64,000 bases of DNA from Planctomycetota bacterium (GTDB lineage: Bacteria; Planctomycetota; JAJSAM01; JAJVHW01), in contig CBDFJG010000004.1 of assembly GCA_965248445.1 (NCBI GenBank), forward strand, positions 1,824,001 to 1,888,000. The letters run 5' to 3'. Position 1 is the stretch's first letter, and each line of letters opens with the position of its first letter. The notes under the pieces are model-generated. The model did no database searches, was not told where the DNA came from, and saw only the letters and a list, made by a program, of their open reading frames with translations. Positions 20,756 through 50,150 of the stretch are shown here, one piece after another. Position numbers and translations under genes: made by a program.

Positions 20756-21157
20756 TCACACTCCGCCGAACGAGTACATCAGCGCGCCAGCGCCAAAACA
20801 TGCCGCGTTGAGCAGGAACACCACACCGGCTCCGATCAGGGTCACCTTCAAGAGCAGGTTGTCCTTCTTCTTCACCGCGTAGATCGCGAGCGGGATGACC
20901 GCGAGGAGCTGTGTTATCCCGATGAAGTACATCGTCGCTCCATGCAGTGGGATGAGAAGGAGTAGCGCCTGTGTCGCGGCCAGAACGGCGGCGAACGTGC
21001 CGATGCGCCCCCAGAGCGAAACCGGAGTCGCCGGACGACGCGGCAGGACCTCGTGCGGATCGTCTCCCGGCTTGCGCGGCGGAGGCGGCAGGGCTCCACG
21101 GTCGTCGACGTTCTCGAGTGGATCGTCCGGAGCGAACAGGTCGTCCCGCTCGCTCAC
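20756..21157 (-). CDS. Hypothetical membrane protein (3 TM), last gene of the Lgt-like/radical SAM operon
   Basis: Acidic Pro-rich N-terminus then hydrophobic segments; GTGA overlap with the radical SAM stop. Confidence 0.6.
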   Translation of the reverse strand: MSERDDLFAPDDPLENVDDRGALPPPPRKPGDDPHEVLPRRPATPVSLWGRIGTFAAVLAATQALLLLIPLHGATMYFIGITQLLAVIPLAIYAVKKKDNLLLKVTLIGAGVVFLLNAACFGAGALMYSFGGV

Positions 21158-22574
21158 GCGATCGCCTCCTGCTCCCTACGCAGCGGAGCCAGCACGCGCT
21201 CCTCCAGATCGTCGCGGTAGAAGAGGTTGTACGTGTCGAACGGGATCAGCCGTCCGTCCACCGGATGCACGAAGTGGATGCAGCTCTTCTTGACGGAGCG
21301 CACGTCGAGGGCGTGTGCGTCCATGAACTGGACGATCAGCACACGAAACACGTTCTCGTAGGACAGGTTCGGCATCGCGGCGCGGGGCATGCAACAGAGC
21401 AAGTCCTTCAGGCTCTCAGCGCCACTCTCCGGCGAGTGCGCGGTCGAGAACGTCTTGAAGAGGCCCTCCTTCACGGCCTCGTCGTGCTCGAACACGATCG
21501 TGCTGCGAGCGCCGTCGAGTAACACACTCTGGTCGAGCAACCCCGTCAGCGGGATGACCTTGTCCTCGATCTTGATCGCGTACGCCATCGCCAGACAATC
21601 CGGGTGACACGGCACGGGGATGATGTCGGCCGGCGCGAAGACGTCGGTCTGCTCGAGAACGCGGGAGCGTACCTCGGTCAGCGTGAGGCGGTTCACGGCC
21701 GGGTCGTAGTTCTCGGCGCGCCCCGCGTGCTGCACGGGCTGGAGGGTGACTCCGCGAACGCACTTCCATTTGAGCGCGAAGTCGACGATCTCCCCGAGTT
21801 CGTCGTCGTTGACGCCGCGCATCACCGTCACGACGAGCGTGGTCGAGAGTCCGACGGCTTCGAGGTTCTCGAGCGCCTTCATGCGCACGTCGACAAGGTC
21901 CTCGCCACGAAGACGCTGGTGCACTTCGGCCCGCAGCGAATCCCACTGCAGGTAGATCTCGAAACCCGGCGCGTAGGCCGCCAGCCGCTCGGCGAACCCG
22001 GGGTCCTTCGCGATGCGCACGCCGTTCGTGTTGAGCATCAGGTGACGGATCGGCCGCTCCTTGGCCGCATCGAGGATCTCGAAGAACTGCGGGTGCACCG
22101 TCGGCTCGCCGCCGGAGATCTGCACGACGTCCGGCTCGCCTTCGTTGGCGACGACCGCGTCGAGCATCGCCTCGACCTCCTCGAGCGTGCGCGACTCGCT
22201 GCGCGCCCGCCCGCTGGACGCGTAGCAGATCGGGCAGTCGAGGTTGCAGCGGTCGCAGATCTCGATGATCGAGAGACAACTGTGCTGCTCGTGGTCGCTG
22301 CAGAGGCCGCAGTCGTAGGGACAGCCCCCTTGACCGGTGTGTTGAAGCGCACCGGCATCTCGGACGGCTTCAGGAACTCCTCGCGCGCCCGTCGGTAGTA
22401 GACAGCGTCGTCTGCGACGAGGACCTTCTCGAGTCCGTGGCGCGGGCAGCGCTTGTGCATGTAGACGCGGCCGTCCTGGATCACGATCTTGGCATCCACC
22501 CGCCGCAGGCACGTGGAGCAGACCGAGATCGTCAGGTCGTAGAACAGATACGGACGGACCCGCGCTTCACCCAT
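21154..22574 (-). CDS. Radical SAM protein, tetraether synthase (Tes/GDGT-MAS, MJ0619)-like; apparent 1-nt deletion frameshift at about 22325
   Basis: N-terminal CSTC-x20-CPRH, GCPYDCGLCSDH, CNLDCPIC (CxxxCxxC), SGGEPT, LNTNG and C-terminal FMDA..DV..VKKSCIHF..DGRLIPF; the two ORF halves join at a G5 run. Confidence 0.85.
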
Positions 22575-23313
22575 CGCGAGACTCTACCCCACGCACGAGC
22601 CGCGGTACGTCCCGTAGGTAGAACAGGAGTCCGAACACGCACGCCCACTGGATCGCCGTCAGTCCGAAGTGGTGCACGCCCGGCTTCAGGAAGTCGACTG
22701 CCAGCCGGAACGTCAGGTACGCGAACATGAACGCGCGGAATCGATCCCCCTCGCGCAAGCCGCGATACCGCAACAGCGCCAGCCCGAGCACCGCGGCGAA
22801 GACCATCTCGACGACTCGCACCGGATGCCGCGCGACGTCCTCACCCAGCACGAGTCCCCACCACGCACCGGTCGGCAGCCCGTGCGTCCCGTCCTCGATG
22901 CCCGCCGAAATGCACCCGAGCCGCCCGATGACGATGCCTACGCAGAGCGGAACGACGAACGCGTCCCCCGTCGAGCGCGTGACGCCGGAGAACCGTTTCC
23001 AGGTCTCGACCGAGATCAGCCCGCCGAGCAGGGCGCCGACGATCGTCTTACGCCCGACGATCGGCACCGGGCCCGCGAACATCCCGGCGAGCCCCTGTTC
23101 GTCGGCCAGCCAGCCGAGCAACCACGATCCGAACGCGGCCCCCACGATGGCCGCGGCGATGGACCCGAGGCGCGTGCCGAAGTCCAGCGGGTCCGCACCC
23201 TTACTGCGCGTGCGGCGGAACACCCAGAACCCGACCGCGTAGGCCGACGCCTCGAACAGCACGTGCGCACTGATCCCGATCGAACCGATCCGGAGGACGA
23301 GCGGGAACTCCAC
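22567..23313 (-). CDS. Prolipoprotein diacylglyceryl transferase (Lgt)-like membrane protein
   Basis: Multi-TM; GALLGG, TGDAFVVPL..GIVIGRLGC, ARHPVRVVE and YLTFRLAVDFLK resemble Lgt motifs; overlaps the radical SAM start. Confidence 0.8.
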   Translation of the reverse strand: MEFPLVLRIGSIGISAHVLFEASAYAVGFWVFRRTRSKGADPLDFGTRLGSIAAAIVGAAFGSWLLGWLADEQGLAGMFAGPVPIVGRKTIVGALLGGLISVETWKRFSGVTRSTGDAFVVPLCVGIVIGRLGCISAGIEDGTHGLPTGAWWGLVLGEDVARHPVRVVEMVFAAVLGLALLRYRGLREGDRFRAFMFAYLTFRLAVDFLKPGVHHFGLTAIQWACVFGLLFYLRDVPRLVRGVESRDG

Positions 23314-23348: not shown

Positions 23349-23422
23349 TCTTCAGCCCGTCGCCCCCTCTTCAGCCCCGCAGGCCCCTCTTCAGCCCCGC
23401 AGCCTCTTCTTCAGCCCCACAG
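23349..23422. repeat. Four direct repeats of TCTTCAGCCC(C) with 19/20/20-bp period
   Basis: Copies start at 23349, 23368, 23388 and 23408, in the divergent intergenic region. Confidence 0.75.
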
Positions 23423-23461
23423 CTTGGGGTGCCGATGTCGAAGCGGAGCCCCTGCGCCACC

Positions 23462-24517
23462 ATGACACACGCCGTCAACTCCCCCTGGCCCTCAGCGCCC
23501 GGTCTGGTGCTGTCGGTGGACGTGCTCTCCGACGAGCCCGGCGGCCGGCGGCAGCGCCACACTACGGTGTCCTGCGGCACCGCGCTGCCGCGCGTGCAGC
23601 GGATCGCCGAGCGGTTCGGCGTGCGTCCGACGTACCTGGTGTCGTTCCAGGCCCTGGGCGAAGCGGAAGTCCGGGACGTGATCACCAACTACGCCCGCGC
23701 CGGCCGCTGCGAGATCGGCGCCCTGCTCGACCTGTCGACCAATCCGCCCTTCCTGCCGGGTGACGGTCACGACGGCGCAGTCCCATCGCAGCCCCCCACC
23801 GAGTTCGTGTCGCAGAAGCTCGTGATCCTGACGGACGTGCTGTGGCAGCGCACCGGAGTGCGGCCGGTGAGTCTGCGACTGCGCGGGCTCGGAGCCACCG
23901 GTGAGGTGCTGCGGGCGGCGGCGGAGTTCGGGTACGCGGTCGACGCGAGCATCCGCCCCGGCGAGTCGTACGTCGCGTCCGACGGGCCCGATCTTGTCGC
24001 CGCGCCGCGGCGTCCGTACCACCCCGCGATCCTCGATGCAGTACAGAGCGGCCAGGTGCCGCTCCTCGAGGCGCCGGTCTCGACGGTCAGTCCGGGCGCG
24101 ACCGACCGCCGTCTTCGAAAGCGTATCGGCCTGCGGTCGCTCACTGCGACGGGTCAGCCGATTTCACTCGATCCCACGGCGGCTCCAGTGGACCTCATGG
24201 TCGAGGCCGTCGACGCCGTGATCGCCGACGAGCAGCCGGTGATCCACTTCACGCTGCCGGCCCACGCGCTCTTCCCCGGTGCCAGCGGGCGGGCCGAGAC
24301 AGCTGATGAGGTGGATGCTCACCTTCGTGCGCTTGCCACGGTGCTCGGTCACACCGTCCGCGCCCGCAGCGCGATCGGGCGCACGCTCTGTCAACTCGCG
24401 TGGATCGACCCCGAGTGCCTACGCGGCGCGCCGCGCGAGCAGGACCTCAGCGACTCGCAGCGCAGCGGCGACGAGACCCTCGCCCGCATCTCGAGCGCCA
24501 TCGACGGCCTGCAGTAG
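23462..24517 (+). CDS. Polysaccharide deacetylase-like (WalW-like) protein
   Basis: LSVDV, FGVRPTYLV, CEIGA, TNPPF, GYAVDAS and LLEAPVS; catalytic His positions appear degenerate. Confidence 0.6.
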   Translation: MTHAVNSPWPSAPGLVLSVDVLSDEPGGRRQRHTTVSCGTALPRVQRIAERFGVRPTYLVSFQALGEAEVRDVITNYARAGRCEIGALLDLSTNPPFLPGDGHDGAVPSQPPTEFVSQKLVILTDVLWQRTGVRPVSLRLRGLGATGEVLRAAAEFGYAVDASIRPGESYVASDGPDLVAAPRRPYHPAILDAVQSGQVPLLEAPVSTVSPGATDRRLRKRIGLRSLTATGQPISLDPTAAPVDLMVEAVDAVIADEQPVIHFTLPAHALFPGASGRAETADEVDAHLRALATVLGHTVRARSAIGRTLCQLAWIDPECLRGAPREQDLSDSQRSGDETLARISSAIDGLQ

Positions 24518-26621: not shown

Positions 26622-27770
26622 GTAACCGTTCACCCCTTGACAGCGTGTGAGCCTCAGCGTGCGAGGGGCAGCGGGACCATGACGGGCGGGTCGGCGCCGG
26701 TGAGGTGCGCGGCGACCGAGTCGGCGAGGAAGTCGAAGACTTGGTCGCCACGGCGTCGCAGCGTGGCCGCGGCGGTCAACACGCGCTCGGCGAAGCGGAG
26801 TCCGCGAGCGGACTGGCTTCCGAAGGAGCCCTTGCGCCAGAGCACCGCTTTGCGGACCGCGCGCTCGGCGGCGTTGTTCGTCGGACTCACGTCCTGGGTC
26901 CGCGCATAGGTGAAGAGGGCGACCACGCGGGGGCGCAGATGGTTGGCCAGAGCCGAGTCGTCGTTCGCGATCAGTCGCTCGAGCCGTCCGCGCAGCACAG
27001 CGGCTTCGCCTTGCAGCCGGTCACGGTCGCCGTGCTCACCGAAGAGCCGGTAGCTGCGCATGACCGACTGCGCGATCATGACGCCCTTGTTGCCGAAGCG
27101 GCGATGTCCTCGCGGGCCTTCGGCCAGCGCACGGAAGGCGCGCTCGATGTGCGCCCAGCAGAGCTGGCGGCGGGCAAGTGGGTGTGACTCGTAGGCACCC
27201 ATCCGGTCGCTGATCACCGTGCCACCGAAGCGCCGCCCGATCAGCCGCCCTTTCGCCTTGGCACTGCGGCGGCGATCGATCCCGAAGGCTGTGGCGTGCT
27301 CGCTCTCCGCCGCCCACAGCCAGCACACCCGGCCCCGTTCCTTCCACGACGTCTCGTCCACGTTGGCTCGCAGCGACGTGCGGACTGCCCCGAGGGCTTC
27401 GAGGTACGACGAGTGCAGAGCGTCACTGAGCCGACGCTCACAGTCGCTGATCTTGCCCAGCGACATCTTCACACCGAAGATCTCACCGAGCAGCCGCTGC
27501 GTCTCCCGCACGCTCACGCGGTACACGCCGCGCAGCGCGCCGGCAAGTGTGGTCAGCCGCGGACCGAAGGCCCCGGTCGGCACGCCATCGGGCAGGACCG
27601 CCGTCGTGACCGCACGACAGCGCCGGCACCGCGCCTTGTGCAGCCGGTGCTCCCGCACCGTGACGAGCACGCGCGGGAGCACCGTCACCTGGTGCCGGTA
27701 CGGATCGCCGATGCCCTGCTCGAGATCGTCGTGTCCGCACGCGTCGCAGAGGTCGGGACGGTGGTCCTTG
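26622..27770 (-). mobile_element. 5'-truncated IS66-family element (single-ORF type); only one terminal IR left
   Basis: End GTAACCGTTCAC at 26622; transposase motifs DET, ISDR, QLCWAH and PTNNAAERAVR; homology stops at DHRPDLCDACG and the leucine-zipper N-terminus is missing. Confidence 0.85.
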
Positions 27771-28662: not shown

Positions 28663-30331
28663 CCCGAATCGTTCACCAGCCGGGAATCTGAGCGGGCCGT
28701 CGTCTGTCTAAGTGCTCGTACTCGCTAGTACTTGCACCGACAGGAGCGCCGGCCCGATGACGACAGACTGTAGCCCGCAGGGGACCCTCTTCGCGGGCAT
28801 CTGTGGACGCACCGCGGTGACGCGCTTCGACGCCGGTACCGTGACGAGCGACGGGGGCGTGCTGCTGCTCGAGCGGACCGATCGTCGCATCGATCTGCTC
28901 TCGCGGTTTGCGCGCTGCTTCGGGGACCACCGGGACCCGCGTCGGGTCGAGCACACGGTCGGCCAGATGCTGCGTCAGCGGGTCTTCGGGCTGTGCGCGG
29001 GCTACGAGGATCTGGTGGACCACGACCATGTCGGCAAGGACCCGCTGTTTGCCGCGGCGTGCGGCAAGCGCGAGGGTGCTCTGGCCACGCACCCGACGCT
29101 CTCGCGGCTCGAGACCACGCAGCTCGGCGCCACGGCACAGACGCGCTACGCCAAGATCGAGATGGACCAGGAGCGCGTGGACAGCGTGCTCAGCGACGTC
29201 TTCTGCGAGGCCATGGGGCCGGAGGATCCGGGCCTGCTCGTGCTGGACCTGGACCACTCCGACGTGCGGCTGCACGGCCGGCAGGAGGGCCGCTTCTTCC
29301 ACGGCTACTACGGGCACTACTGCTACCTGCCGCTGTACGTCTTCTGCGGCGAGCACCTCTTGCTCGCTCGGCTCCAGACCGCTGACAGAGATCCCGCGCG
29401 CGGAGTCGTGGACGAGCTCCGTGCGCTGGTCTTACGTCTGCGGCGCCGCTGGCCCCGGGCCAAGGTGCTCGTGCGCGCAGACTCGGGCTTTTGCCGCGAG
29501 GAGCTGATGGCCTGGTGCGAGGCCGCCGGCCACTTCTACCTGCTGGGCATGGCGCGCAATGAGCGCCTTGAGCGACACGTCGAAGACGCGCTCGATGAGG
29601 CCGCAGCCCGTGCCGTGCAGACCGGCCGAGCAGCCCGGGTCTTTCGCGACTTTGCCTGGACCACGCTGGGGAGCTGGAGCCAGAGGCGTCGCGTGGTCGC
29701 CAAGGCCGAGCACCTGCCGGGCGGCAAGCGCAATCCCCGCTTCGTGGTGACCAATCTGCCGCCTCGTAGCTGGAGCAGCAAGCGTCTCTACGAGCAGCTC
29801 TACTGCGCCCGGGGCGAGGCGGAGAATCGCATCAAGGAGCAGCAGCTCGAGCTCTTCGGCACCCGTCTGTCGGTGCACACGATGCAGGGCAACGCCGTGC
29901 GGATGGCCATGTCGGCCATGGCCTACGTCCTGACCTGTGCGCTGCGACGCATCGGTCTCGCCGGCACCGAGATGGCGCGTGCGCAAGCCGGCACGATCCG
30001 CCTGCGGCTGCTCAAGATCGGCGCGCTCGTGCGGATCACGACGCGCCGGATCTGGGTCTCGATGTCCTCGTCGTGGCCCTGGCAGCACGTCTTCGAGCGC
30101 TGCGCGCAACGACTGCTGGCATCCCCGAAGCCGACCTGACGTCCCGCCGCGCCGTCCGCCACACCACCGCCCGGCCTACGGTCTGCCCACACCGCAGAAT
30201 CCGCGCCGTTTCGGCCGCTCACTCGCGTTGCCCTTGTGGCAACGACGACAGCATCCGCCCTCGCCTGGCCAAGATCTGACCCTGTGGACTCCGAAAGCAC
30301 CGTCATCGCGACGTCTCGTGAACAGATGCGG
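28663..30331 (+). mobile_element. IS1380-family insertion sequence, copy 1 (1669 bp), CTAG target duplication
   Basis: Ends CCCGAATCGTTCAC and GTGAACAGATGCGG; CTAG at 28659-28662 and 30332-30335; matches 44170-45838 in reverse. Confidence 0.95.
28757..30139 (+). CDS. IS1380 family DDE transposase
   Basis: TSDGG.LLL, GYED..D, LDLD....HG.QEG, RADSGF and Y.ARGEAENRIKE. Confidence 0.95.
   Translation: MTTDCSPQGTLFAGICGRTAVTRFDAGTVTSDGGVLLLERTDRRIDLLSRFARCFGDHRDPRRVEHTVGQMLRQRVFGLCAGYEDLVDHDHVGKDPLFAAACGKREGALATHPTLSRLETTQLGATAQTRYAKIEMDQERVDSVLSDVFCEAMGPEDPGLLVLDLDHSDVRLHGRQEGRFFHGYYGHYCYLPLYVFCGEHLLLARLQTADRDPARGVVDELRALVLRLRRRWPRAKVLVRADSGFCREELMAWCEAAGHFYLLGMARNERLERHVEDALDEAAARAVQTGRAARVFRDFAWTTLGSWSQRRRVVAKAEHLPGGKRNPRFVVTNLPPRSWSSKRLYEQLYCARGEAENRIKEQQLELFGTRLSVHTMQGNAVRMAMSAMAYVLTCALRRIGLAGTEMARAQAGTIRLRLLKIGALVRITTRRIWVSMSSSWPWQHVFERCAQRLLASPKPT

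Positions 30332-50110: not shown

Positions 50111-50150
<40 letters not shown>

Follow-up and report, generated by a model that had tools for sequence, protein, structure and literature searches.

We analyzed a 64-kb stretch of DNA from a Planctomycetota bacterium (assembly GCA_965248445.1, contig CBDFJG010000004.1, positions 1,824,001 to 1,888,000 of the forward strand; hereafter, the window) and found in it a cassette of three overlapping genes, which encode a divergent paralogue of the diacylglyceryl transferase Lgt, a radical SAM (S-adenosylmethionine) enzyme with the fold of Tes, the archaeal tetraether synthase that joins lipid tails, and a small membrane protein. The cassette is real and widespread, it is apparently undescribed, and it is predicted to act in lipid-protein modification. 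Judged by their sequences, both enzymes belong to known superfamilies yet fall outside the definitions of Tes, TrsS, and housekeeping Lgt. We document the linkage and fusion of the two enzymes, their folds and residue changes, a cysteine at a characteristic position in the adjacent small proteins, and a frameshift in the window's own copy. The explanation we favor, with confidence somewhat above even, is that small proteins would be S-lipidated by the dedicated Lgt paralogue once the radical enzyme had tailored the tail of a phospholipid.

All three genes lie on the minus strand. The Lgt-like gene comes first (window positions 22567 to 23313, 248 amino acids), followed by the radical SAM gene (21154 to 22574, split by the frameshift) and the gene for the small membrane protein (20756 to 21157, 133 amino acids, three predicted membrane helices), which is preceded by AGGAGG. 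The Lgt-like and radical SAM genes overlap by 8 nucleotides (nt; ATGGGTGA), and the radical SAM and small genes by 4 nt (GTGA). These overlaps agree with the initial annotation, made from the sequence letters, which had described an operon of three genes with overlapping starts and stops.

We quantified how often the two enzymes occur together. Among 80 loci selected by the radical SAM enzyme, the Lgt-like gene was present in 54 of the 68 at 53% identity or above and in none of the 12 at 38 to 44% identity. The 14 loci missing the Lgt-like gene include ten whose start is no more than about 1.3 kb from the end of a contig; eight genomes with no adjacent copy were searched, and seven of them have an Lgt-like gene elsewhere. 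When metagenome loci were selected by Lgt, the enzyme was matched in 60 of 80, and in 49 of the 54 with at least 1 kb of downstream sequence. Across 41 genomes of the window's phylum, the Lgt-like gene (at least 190 bits) was found in 11 and in each case was next to a Tes-fold enzyme. A close enzyme occurs in 11 genomes of this phylum, 10 of which have the Lgt-like gene; in the exception, the enzyme gene lies near a contig start. The two genes can also be joined: 49 of 51 long homologues of the enzyme are Lgt-zinc ribbon-radical SAM fusions (median pairwise identity 59%), and they have the same residue pattern as the separate genes. A fusion search from the Lgt side returned only seven Lgt-PDZ proteins, and none of the 80 metagenome loci was fused. 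Overall, these counts confirm, for the pairing of Lgt and enzyme, the conserved gene neighborhood that had been anticipated. Hosts in our tree belong to Bacteroidota, Pseudomonadota, Acidobacteriota, Planctomycetota, Myxococcota, Bacillota, and Actinomycetota, together with a Peregrinibacteria bin.

Two groups of loci are arranged differently. In Archangium-type loci (L040, L042, L044, L046, L047, and L052), the Lgt-like gene is transcribed divergently from the enzyme and lies behind a gene for a His-rich membrane protein that resembles a sterol desaturase/hydroxylase; no small Cys protein was detected in these loci. In Methylococcales-type loci (L067, L198, L199, and L209), the Lgt paralogue follows a gene for a 210-amino-acid lipoprotein-like protein with FxGxC-FTP and a C-terminal membrane segment, and it is often unlinked from the enzyme.

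The radical SAM enzyme has the Tes-type architecture proposed in the initial annotation. Its N-terminal 83 codons (22326 to 22574) encode a rubredoxin-like CxxC-x20-CxxH domain (PF23545 zinc ribbon, 71 bits), and its C-terminal 390 codons (21154 to 22326), which hold the PF04055 core, encode the Tes fold with the N-cluster CxxxCxxCxxHxxHxC, the SAM cluster CxxxCxxC, and a remodelled C-terminal domain. The motifs present are CSTC-x20-CPRH, GCPYDCGLCSDHEQH, CxxxCxxC, CHPDC, FMDA, KSCIH, and DGRLIPFD. The best sequence match was the Tes structure 7TOL (E value 1.8e-55 with the C-terminal fragment alone). The intact homologue L104, modelled in place of the window's split gene (predicted local distance difference test [pLDDT] 89), also had this structure as its best fold match (template modeling [TM] score 0.80, 29% identity). 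The four-domain Tes fold is evident in that model, and the rubredoxin C-x2-C-x20-C-x2-H, N-cluster, and SAM-cluster motifs are all present. The fold search favored the lipid enzyme 7TOL over peptide maturases (E value 3e-38 versus 3e-11).

Scores against family models place the enzyme outside its named relatives. With NF045702 (Tes/GDGT-MAS; MJ0619, PDB 7TOL and 7TOM; cut-off 450), the two window fragments scored 240 and 37 bits and all four intact homologues tested scored 272 to 285 bits. The best-scoring NCBIfam model was NF045646 (TrsS, cut-off 490), with which intact homologues scored 301 to 333 bits (n = 4). We built quick trees in which the comparison rows were 12 bacterial Tes proteins above the cut-off, 6 TrsS proteins, and 8 acidobacterial sister proteins, all bacterial. 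The Lgt-linked proteins form their own clade (Shimodaira-Hasegawa-like approximate likelihood ratio test [SH-aLRT] support 99 to 100), apart from Tes, TrsS, and the sister clade. A grouping with MoaA, which would have refuted the reading in the initial annotation, was not recovered. By these scores and trees, the enzyme is not Tes.

The difference from Tes is concentrated in the C-terminal cluster. In Tes, this cluster is held by three cysteines and Met439 (PMC13459092; PMC9433317), and the first radical is stored as a C-S adduct to a sulfur of the cluster (PMC13459092, section 2.1; PMC9433317); Met439 and Tyr459 are both described as dispensable (PMC9433317). The three cysteines, which are not numbered in the text of the paper, correspond by conservation to positions 244, 348, and 364 of the window enzyme (P0001 numbering). 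All three are Cys in 12 of 12 Tes, 6 of 6 TrsS, and 8 of 8 sister-clade proteins. Among 46 aligned members of the Lgt-linked clade, position 348 is Ser, Thr, or Ala throughout (Ser or Thr in 45) and never Cys, position 364 is Asp or Glu in every member, and position 244 is Cys in 11 and lost in 35. The Met439 position is Met in 24 of the 46, and Tyr459 is found in none. Expressed in Tes numbering, with the cluster ligands again assigned by inference, C455 is replaced by Ser or Thr and C470 by Asp or Glu, C338 is variable, Met439 is partly kept, Tyr459 is absent, and an extra CC motif is present. TrsS, a radical SAM (seleno)protein of the same superfamily, differs from the window clade in keeping all three Tes-type cysteines without the CC motif.

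In the window, the remodelled metal region lies at 21235 to 21609 (minus strand). The Tes cysteine positions there read C244, S348, and D364, with Val at the Met439 position and Phe at the Tyr459 position, in contrast to the Tes C-cluster. The region also contains four cysteines that are conserved in the clade: C240 (46/46), C311 and C312 (44/46 each), and C349 (46/46). The sister clade has a matching four-cysteine set alongside the Tes set; therefore, C240, C311, C312, and C349 probably form a metal site separate from the Tes C-cluster. The initial annotation had noted two replacements, CC to SC and PFC to PFD, and both hold in comparison with 7TOL; the altered chemistry it proposed is supported by the replaced positions. 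It had also pointed to a CHPDC motif, which is present in the window, but the second Cys of this motif is not a feature of the family (Cys in 11 of 46 members).

Given this remodelling, we considered whether the enzyme still couples two lipid tails by a C-C bond, with the first radical held on a re-ligated cluster, to give membrane-spanning or macrocyclic lipids that are either free or transferred by Lgt as a spanning anchor. Several observations are consistent with such coupling. [quoted passage not shown] Because C348 and C364 are replaced in all 46 members, however, tail-to-tail synthesis of membrane-spanning lipids is unlikely, and C244, which Tes, TrsS, and the sister clade keep together with the other two, is lost in most members as well. 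The four other cysteines appear to serve a separate site, Tyr459 is lost, and the clade is distinct from Tes. Furthermore, Tes homologues do not track the bacterial producers of membrane-spanning lipids: PMC13159169 reports them, by stringent criteria, in only 3 of 14 acidobacteria that produce iso-diabolic acid and found no homologue in any other producer it screened. We therefore regard tail coupling as unlikely, and the membrane-spanning or cross-linked lipids that had been offered as an example of the product are weakened accordingly. Because the ligands of the cluster that stores the first radical in Tes are replaced, a single-radical change to the lipid is the more probable chemistry.

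Other Tes-fold proteins came to light in these comparisons. The sister clade (L068 to L071 and L073 to L080), which is mostly acidobacterial, keeps the Tes-type cysteines together with the extra cysteine set, scores below both the Tes and TrsS cut-offs, and has a methyltransferase-like gene following the enzyme gene in at least five loci; for two-radical chemistry, it is a stronger candidate than the Lgt-linked clade. Two planctomycetes (L115, G035:C30; L116, G029:C229) carry pairs of divergent Tes-fold radical SAM paralogues at 30 to 35% identity. The two genes of a pair are neighbors in L116 and are separated by about 3 kb in L115, and neither locus has an Lgt-like gene beside them; these paralogues have His at the Met439 position and occupy a long branch of their own. 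In two further proteins (P0061 and P0062), one of them from Streptomyces, a Tes-fold enzyme is fused to a methyltransferase domain.

The first gene of the cassette belongs to the Lgt superfamily, as had been proposed: it scores 44.3 bits against PF01790 (gathering cut-off 24.9), it has the Lgt fold, and it conserves Lgt residues. Compared with Escherichia coli Lgt, the phosphatidylglycerol:prolipoprotein diacylglyceryl transferase (PDB 5AZB/5AZC; PF01790, TIGR00544), the paralogue keeps R143, G154, H196, Y235, and R239 and changes Y26 to H, H103 to V, N146 to C, E243 to D, and R246 to K; it also has a shorter head and a new ExxK motif (E103/K106) that is invariant across the paralogue family. 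Six residues are essential in E. coli Lgt (Y26, H103, R143, N146, G154, and R239; PMC13251419), and the paralogue retains three of them (R143, G154, and R239). The combination of Y26H and N146C is also reported for MSMEG_5408, the second Lgt of Mycobacterium smegmatis, whose activity is only presumed to be low (PMC13251419). Two further Lgt-family genes are present in the same genome (230 and 137 bits), and the paralogue is accessory to a housekeeping Lgt.

The third gene provides the candidate substrate. In the 133-amino-acid protein, a basic loop (KKKD..K) precedes the last helix, which terminates in LLNAAC-FGAGALMYSFGGV, and the predicted lipidation site is Cys120 (codon at 20798 to 20800, minus strand). 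This is not a canonical prolipoprotein, in which an N-terminal signal ends [LVI][ASTVI][GAS]C; here, the cysteine is residue 120 of 133 and its context is N-A-A-C. The protein has few sequence relatives, matched no Pfam or NCBIfam family, fell only into unnamed Atlas clusters (best 0.93), and had no paralogue in its own genome. At the same position in other loci we found genes, often in tandem copies, whose products have in common a hydrophobic helix with a lipobox-like cysteine at its end. No family was common to 35 of these counterparts, and in their alignment the Cys was the sole conserved column, a result that is partly built in because rows were chosen and trimmed on that Cys. Across the counterparts, the consensus approximates [LI]-[GL]-x-[GSA]-x-C, followed by hydrophobic residues at +1 to +5.

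We expressed this feature as a rule, 14 uncharged hydrophobic residues and then Cys, and applied it to small two-helix open reading frames (ORFs) within 300 nt of the cassette. The rule was satisfied by 42 of 57 adjacent ORFs, compared to 4 of 18 more distant ones; across the genome that contains the window, 27 of 109 satisfied it, the small gene itself among them. In a held-out set drawn from the Lgt-selected loci, 53 of 57 ORFs satisfied it, although only identical sequences had been removed, many kin remain, and the far control is a single ORF. Of 69 hand-listed proteins, 65 have the Cys at a median distance of 20 residues behind a K/R-rich stretch (2.1 K/R versus 0.5 D/E) and hydrophobic residues after it; the filter applied to this set restricted the -2 residue and, for a few proteins, selected the wrong Cys. 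The Cys is C-terminal, with a tail of 20 residues or fewer, in 37 of the 65, and it follows the first helix and precedes a long membrane-bound tail in the other 28. Like known Lgt acceptors, these candidates have a basic stretch, then a hydrophobic helix, then Cys; unlike them, they often have the Cys at the C-terminal end of a multi-helix protein, with a -1 residue that is non-canonical and a hydrophobic stretch behind the Cys.

The position of the cysteine bears on which enzyme could reach it. The Lgt active site is described as lying on the outer face of the membrane (PMC4728403). Because the Cys follows a basic stretch, the positive-inside rule would have it face outward, and because the helix ends in a lipobox-like Cys, the small protein is likely the substrate of the Lgt paralogue. 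A different arrangement would have the radical enzyme join the lipid-tail radical directly to the sulfur of this Cys as a thioether, the Cys standing in for the Tes cluster sulfur and the Lgt-like protein having a scaffolding, non-catalytic role. The C-S bond formed by the first radical in Tes (PMC13459092, section 2.1), the remodelling of that site in the clade, the absence of Y26, H103, and N146 from the paralogue, and the fusions that tie the two proteins together are all compatible with direct joining. The Cys, however, lies about 20 residues past an inside-facing basic stretch, on the side of the membrane opposite a cytoplasmic enzyme, and the phosphate-binding arginines of Lgt are conserved. 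We consider thioether formation decidedly unlikely.

The small proteins could also be precursors in a pathway resembling that of RiPPs (peptides made on the ribosome and modified after translation), in which they would receive an ordinary diacylglyceryl group from the Lgt paralogue and a peptide modification from the radical enzyme, and signal peptidase II would free a short C-terminal lipopeptide. Their hypervariability, the tandem paralogues, and the short tails of more than half of the 65 proteins fit such a pathway, but the remaining proteins have long membrane-bound tails, the tails share no motif, and the closest structure to the enzyme is a lipid enzyme that scores far above the peptide maturases. 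We judge a lipopeptide product to be very unlikely. Finally, the small genes might be passengers, with both enzymes acting on another lipid or on ordinary lipoproteins. Some loci have no detectable small protein, and in Methylococcales-type L198, L199, and L209 a conventional-looking lipoprotein gene stands beside the Lgt paralogue instead; however, enrichment of the positional cysteine in two independently selected sets makes this the least probable of the alternatives.

Returning to lipid tailoring followed by S-lipidation, we propose the following sequence of steps. On the inner side of the membrane, the radical SAM enzyme would alter the tail of a phospholipid, probably through single-radical chemistry and not by C-C coupling of two tails, and the Lgt paralogue would then move the tailored diacylglyceryl group onto the helix-end Cys of small membrane proteins at the outer face. 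The C terminus of Lgt is cytoplasmic; because an enzyme fused C-terminally to Lgt, or associated with it, would sit in the cytoplasm, it would act on the lipid before transfer. A second Lgt may be kept because the housekeeping enzyme cannot handle either the tailored donor or a non-canonical acceptor with a hydrophobic tail. A bolder version of this proposal is that the cassette represents a second, hitherto unrecognized bacterial protein-lipidation pathway, in which a dedicated Lgt and a radical enzyme derived from Tes, often a single polypeptide working across both membrane faces, place a radical-tailored lipid (possibly a tail-linked membrane-spanning anchor, or one linked tail-to-sulfur) on an internal or C-terminal Cys of hypervariable small membrane proteins in at least seven phyla. 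We hold this version tentatively, with somewhat less than even confidence.

Several points weigh against lipid tailoring and S-lipidation. The modified protein, the lipid, and the activity are all predicted from sequence and fold, and in the case of lipid as the enzyme's substrate the prediction comes from the fold. Half of the six residues that E. coli Lgt requires (Y26, H103, and N146) are replaced, and MSMEG_5408, described with two of these changes, is only presumed to have low activity, so the paralogue may lack transferase function. We wrote the cysteine rule with the first set already in view, the loci are related, and the P values are too optimistic. The context of the Cys departs from the lipobox, the -1 residue often being large and positions +1 to +5 hydrophobic (mean Kyte-Doolittle hydropathy +1.6, compared to -0.9 in 57 pattern-picked lipoproteins). 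Under the filter used, only 38 of 61 Lgt-bearing loci have an adjacent small membrane ORF, and several, such as the Archangium loci, L109, and L117, have no small ORF. In addition, the enzyme of L117 (G019:C115) is Lgt-linked and retains all three Tes-type cysteines; it lacks the CC motif and branches next to the clade (support 92). This locus is a possible intermediate, and because it is Lgt-linked and keeps the Tes set, the Lgt partnership may predate the loss of the cysteines.

The copy of the cassette in the window is probably damaged. The radical SAM gene is in two frames, its 83 N-terminal and 390 C-terminal residues meeting at a G5 run (22325 to 22329, minus strand) where, by comparison with homologues, one base is deleted and the frame shifts just before GCPYDCGLC. 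The two parts are in one frame in 75 of 75 homologous loci that hold both, the other 5 of 80 loci having no N-terminal part, and the closest relatives, from the same family, have K/R-W-G-C at the site where the window is one base short. Programmed frameshifting as a feature of the family was rejected, given that the shift is found in no homologue. An assembly error may be behind the short G5 run. The short junction is identical and free of gaps in contigs from four of four runs, which come from one sample with the platform unrecorded and are possibly the assembly's own source. Elsewhere in the assembly, frame changes appeared in 5 of 112 orthologue comparisons, representing two clear sites and one doubtful one, and G/C runs reach a length of 35. 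Overall, we think it fairly likely that the frameshift is a real lesion rather than an artefact. If so, the lesion is recent, because the enzyme retains 107 of 107 clade-conserved columns, and the window copy is probably a recent pseudogene and likely inactive. In its Lgt-like gene, 5 of the 29 positions conserved in the family are lost, compared to zero or one in 113 of 134 homologues, which fits either erosion or local divergence. A further member of the clade, L030, also shows a break of frame, which falls in the region of the enzyme gene that encodes the C-terminal part.

Among the genes around the cassette, the downstream S9 peptidase, the upstream gene of 362 amino acids, gspG, and the porin are not conserved as neighbors across the loci compared. 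The 362-amino-acid gene (23429 to 24517, plus strand) is transcribed divergently from the cassette and has no significant Pfam or NCBIfam match; we take it to resemble a degenerate polysaccharide deacetylase. Just upstream of the Lgt-like gene is a 20-bp tandem repeat of 3.8 copies (23349 to 23423), to which contigs from the same sample add one unit compared to the assembly. Two transposase genes lie 3 to 7 kb from the cassette, one of the IS66 family (26654 to 27688, minus strand), which is apparently split, and one of the DDE_Tnp_1_4 type (28712 to 30139, plus strand); the second transposon element is also found beside the housekeeping lgt. A run of 35 C at 50115 to 50149 is probably an assembly artefact.

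We found no description of the cassette in the literature, although subscription papers and supplements outside the search could hold a mention. The TigD/TigE cluster was rejected as a precedent, as the sections of PMC10878394 consulted describe no Lgt or lipoprotein gene. The proposal in the initial annotation of an uncharacterized bacterial system for modifying lipids or lipoproteins is supported. The window's own copy, being frameshifted, is of lesser importance, and cultured carriers of the cassette include Tumebacillus flagellatus and Niallia oryzisoli. For genome surveys, the Lgt-linked clade should not be counted as evidence of tetraether or brGDGT synthesis, because its members pass the e-value and identity filters of such surveys (1.8e-55 to 7TOL for the window's fragment alone) but lack the Tes C-cluster cysteines. 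Through the cassette, a large set of Tes homologues in bacteria gains a function that can be tested and a candidate substrate with a name, and if our explanation is correct, bacterial S-lipidation would extend beyond N-terminal lipoboxes and ordinary diacylglycerol.

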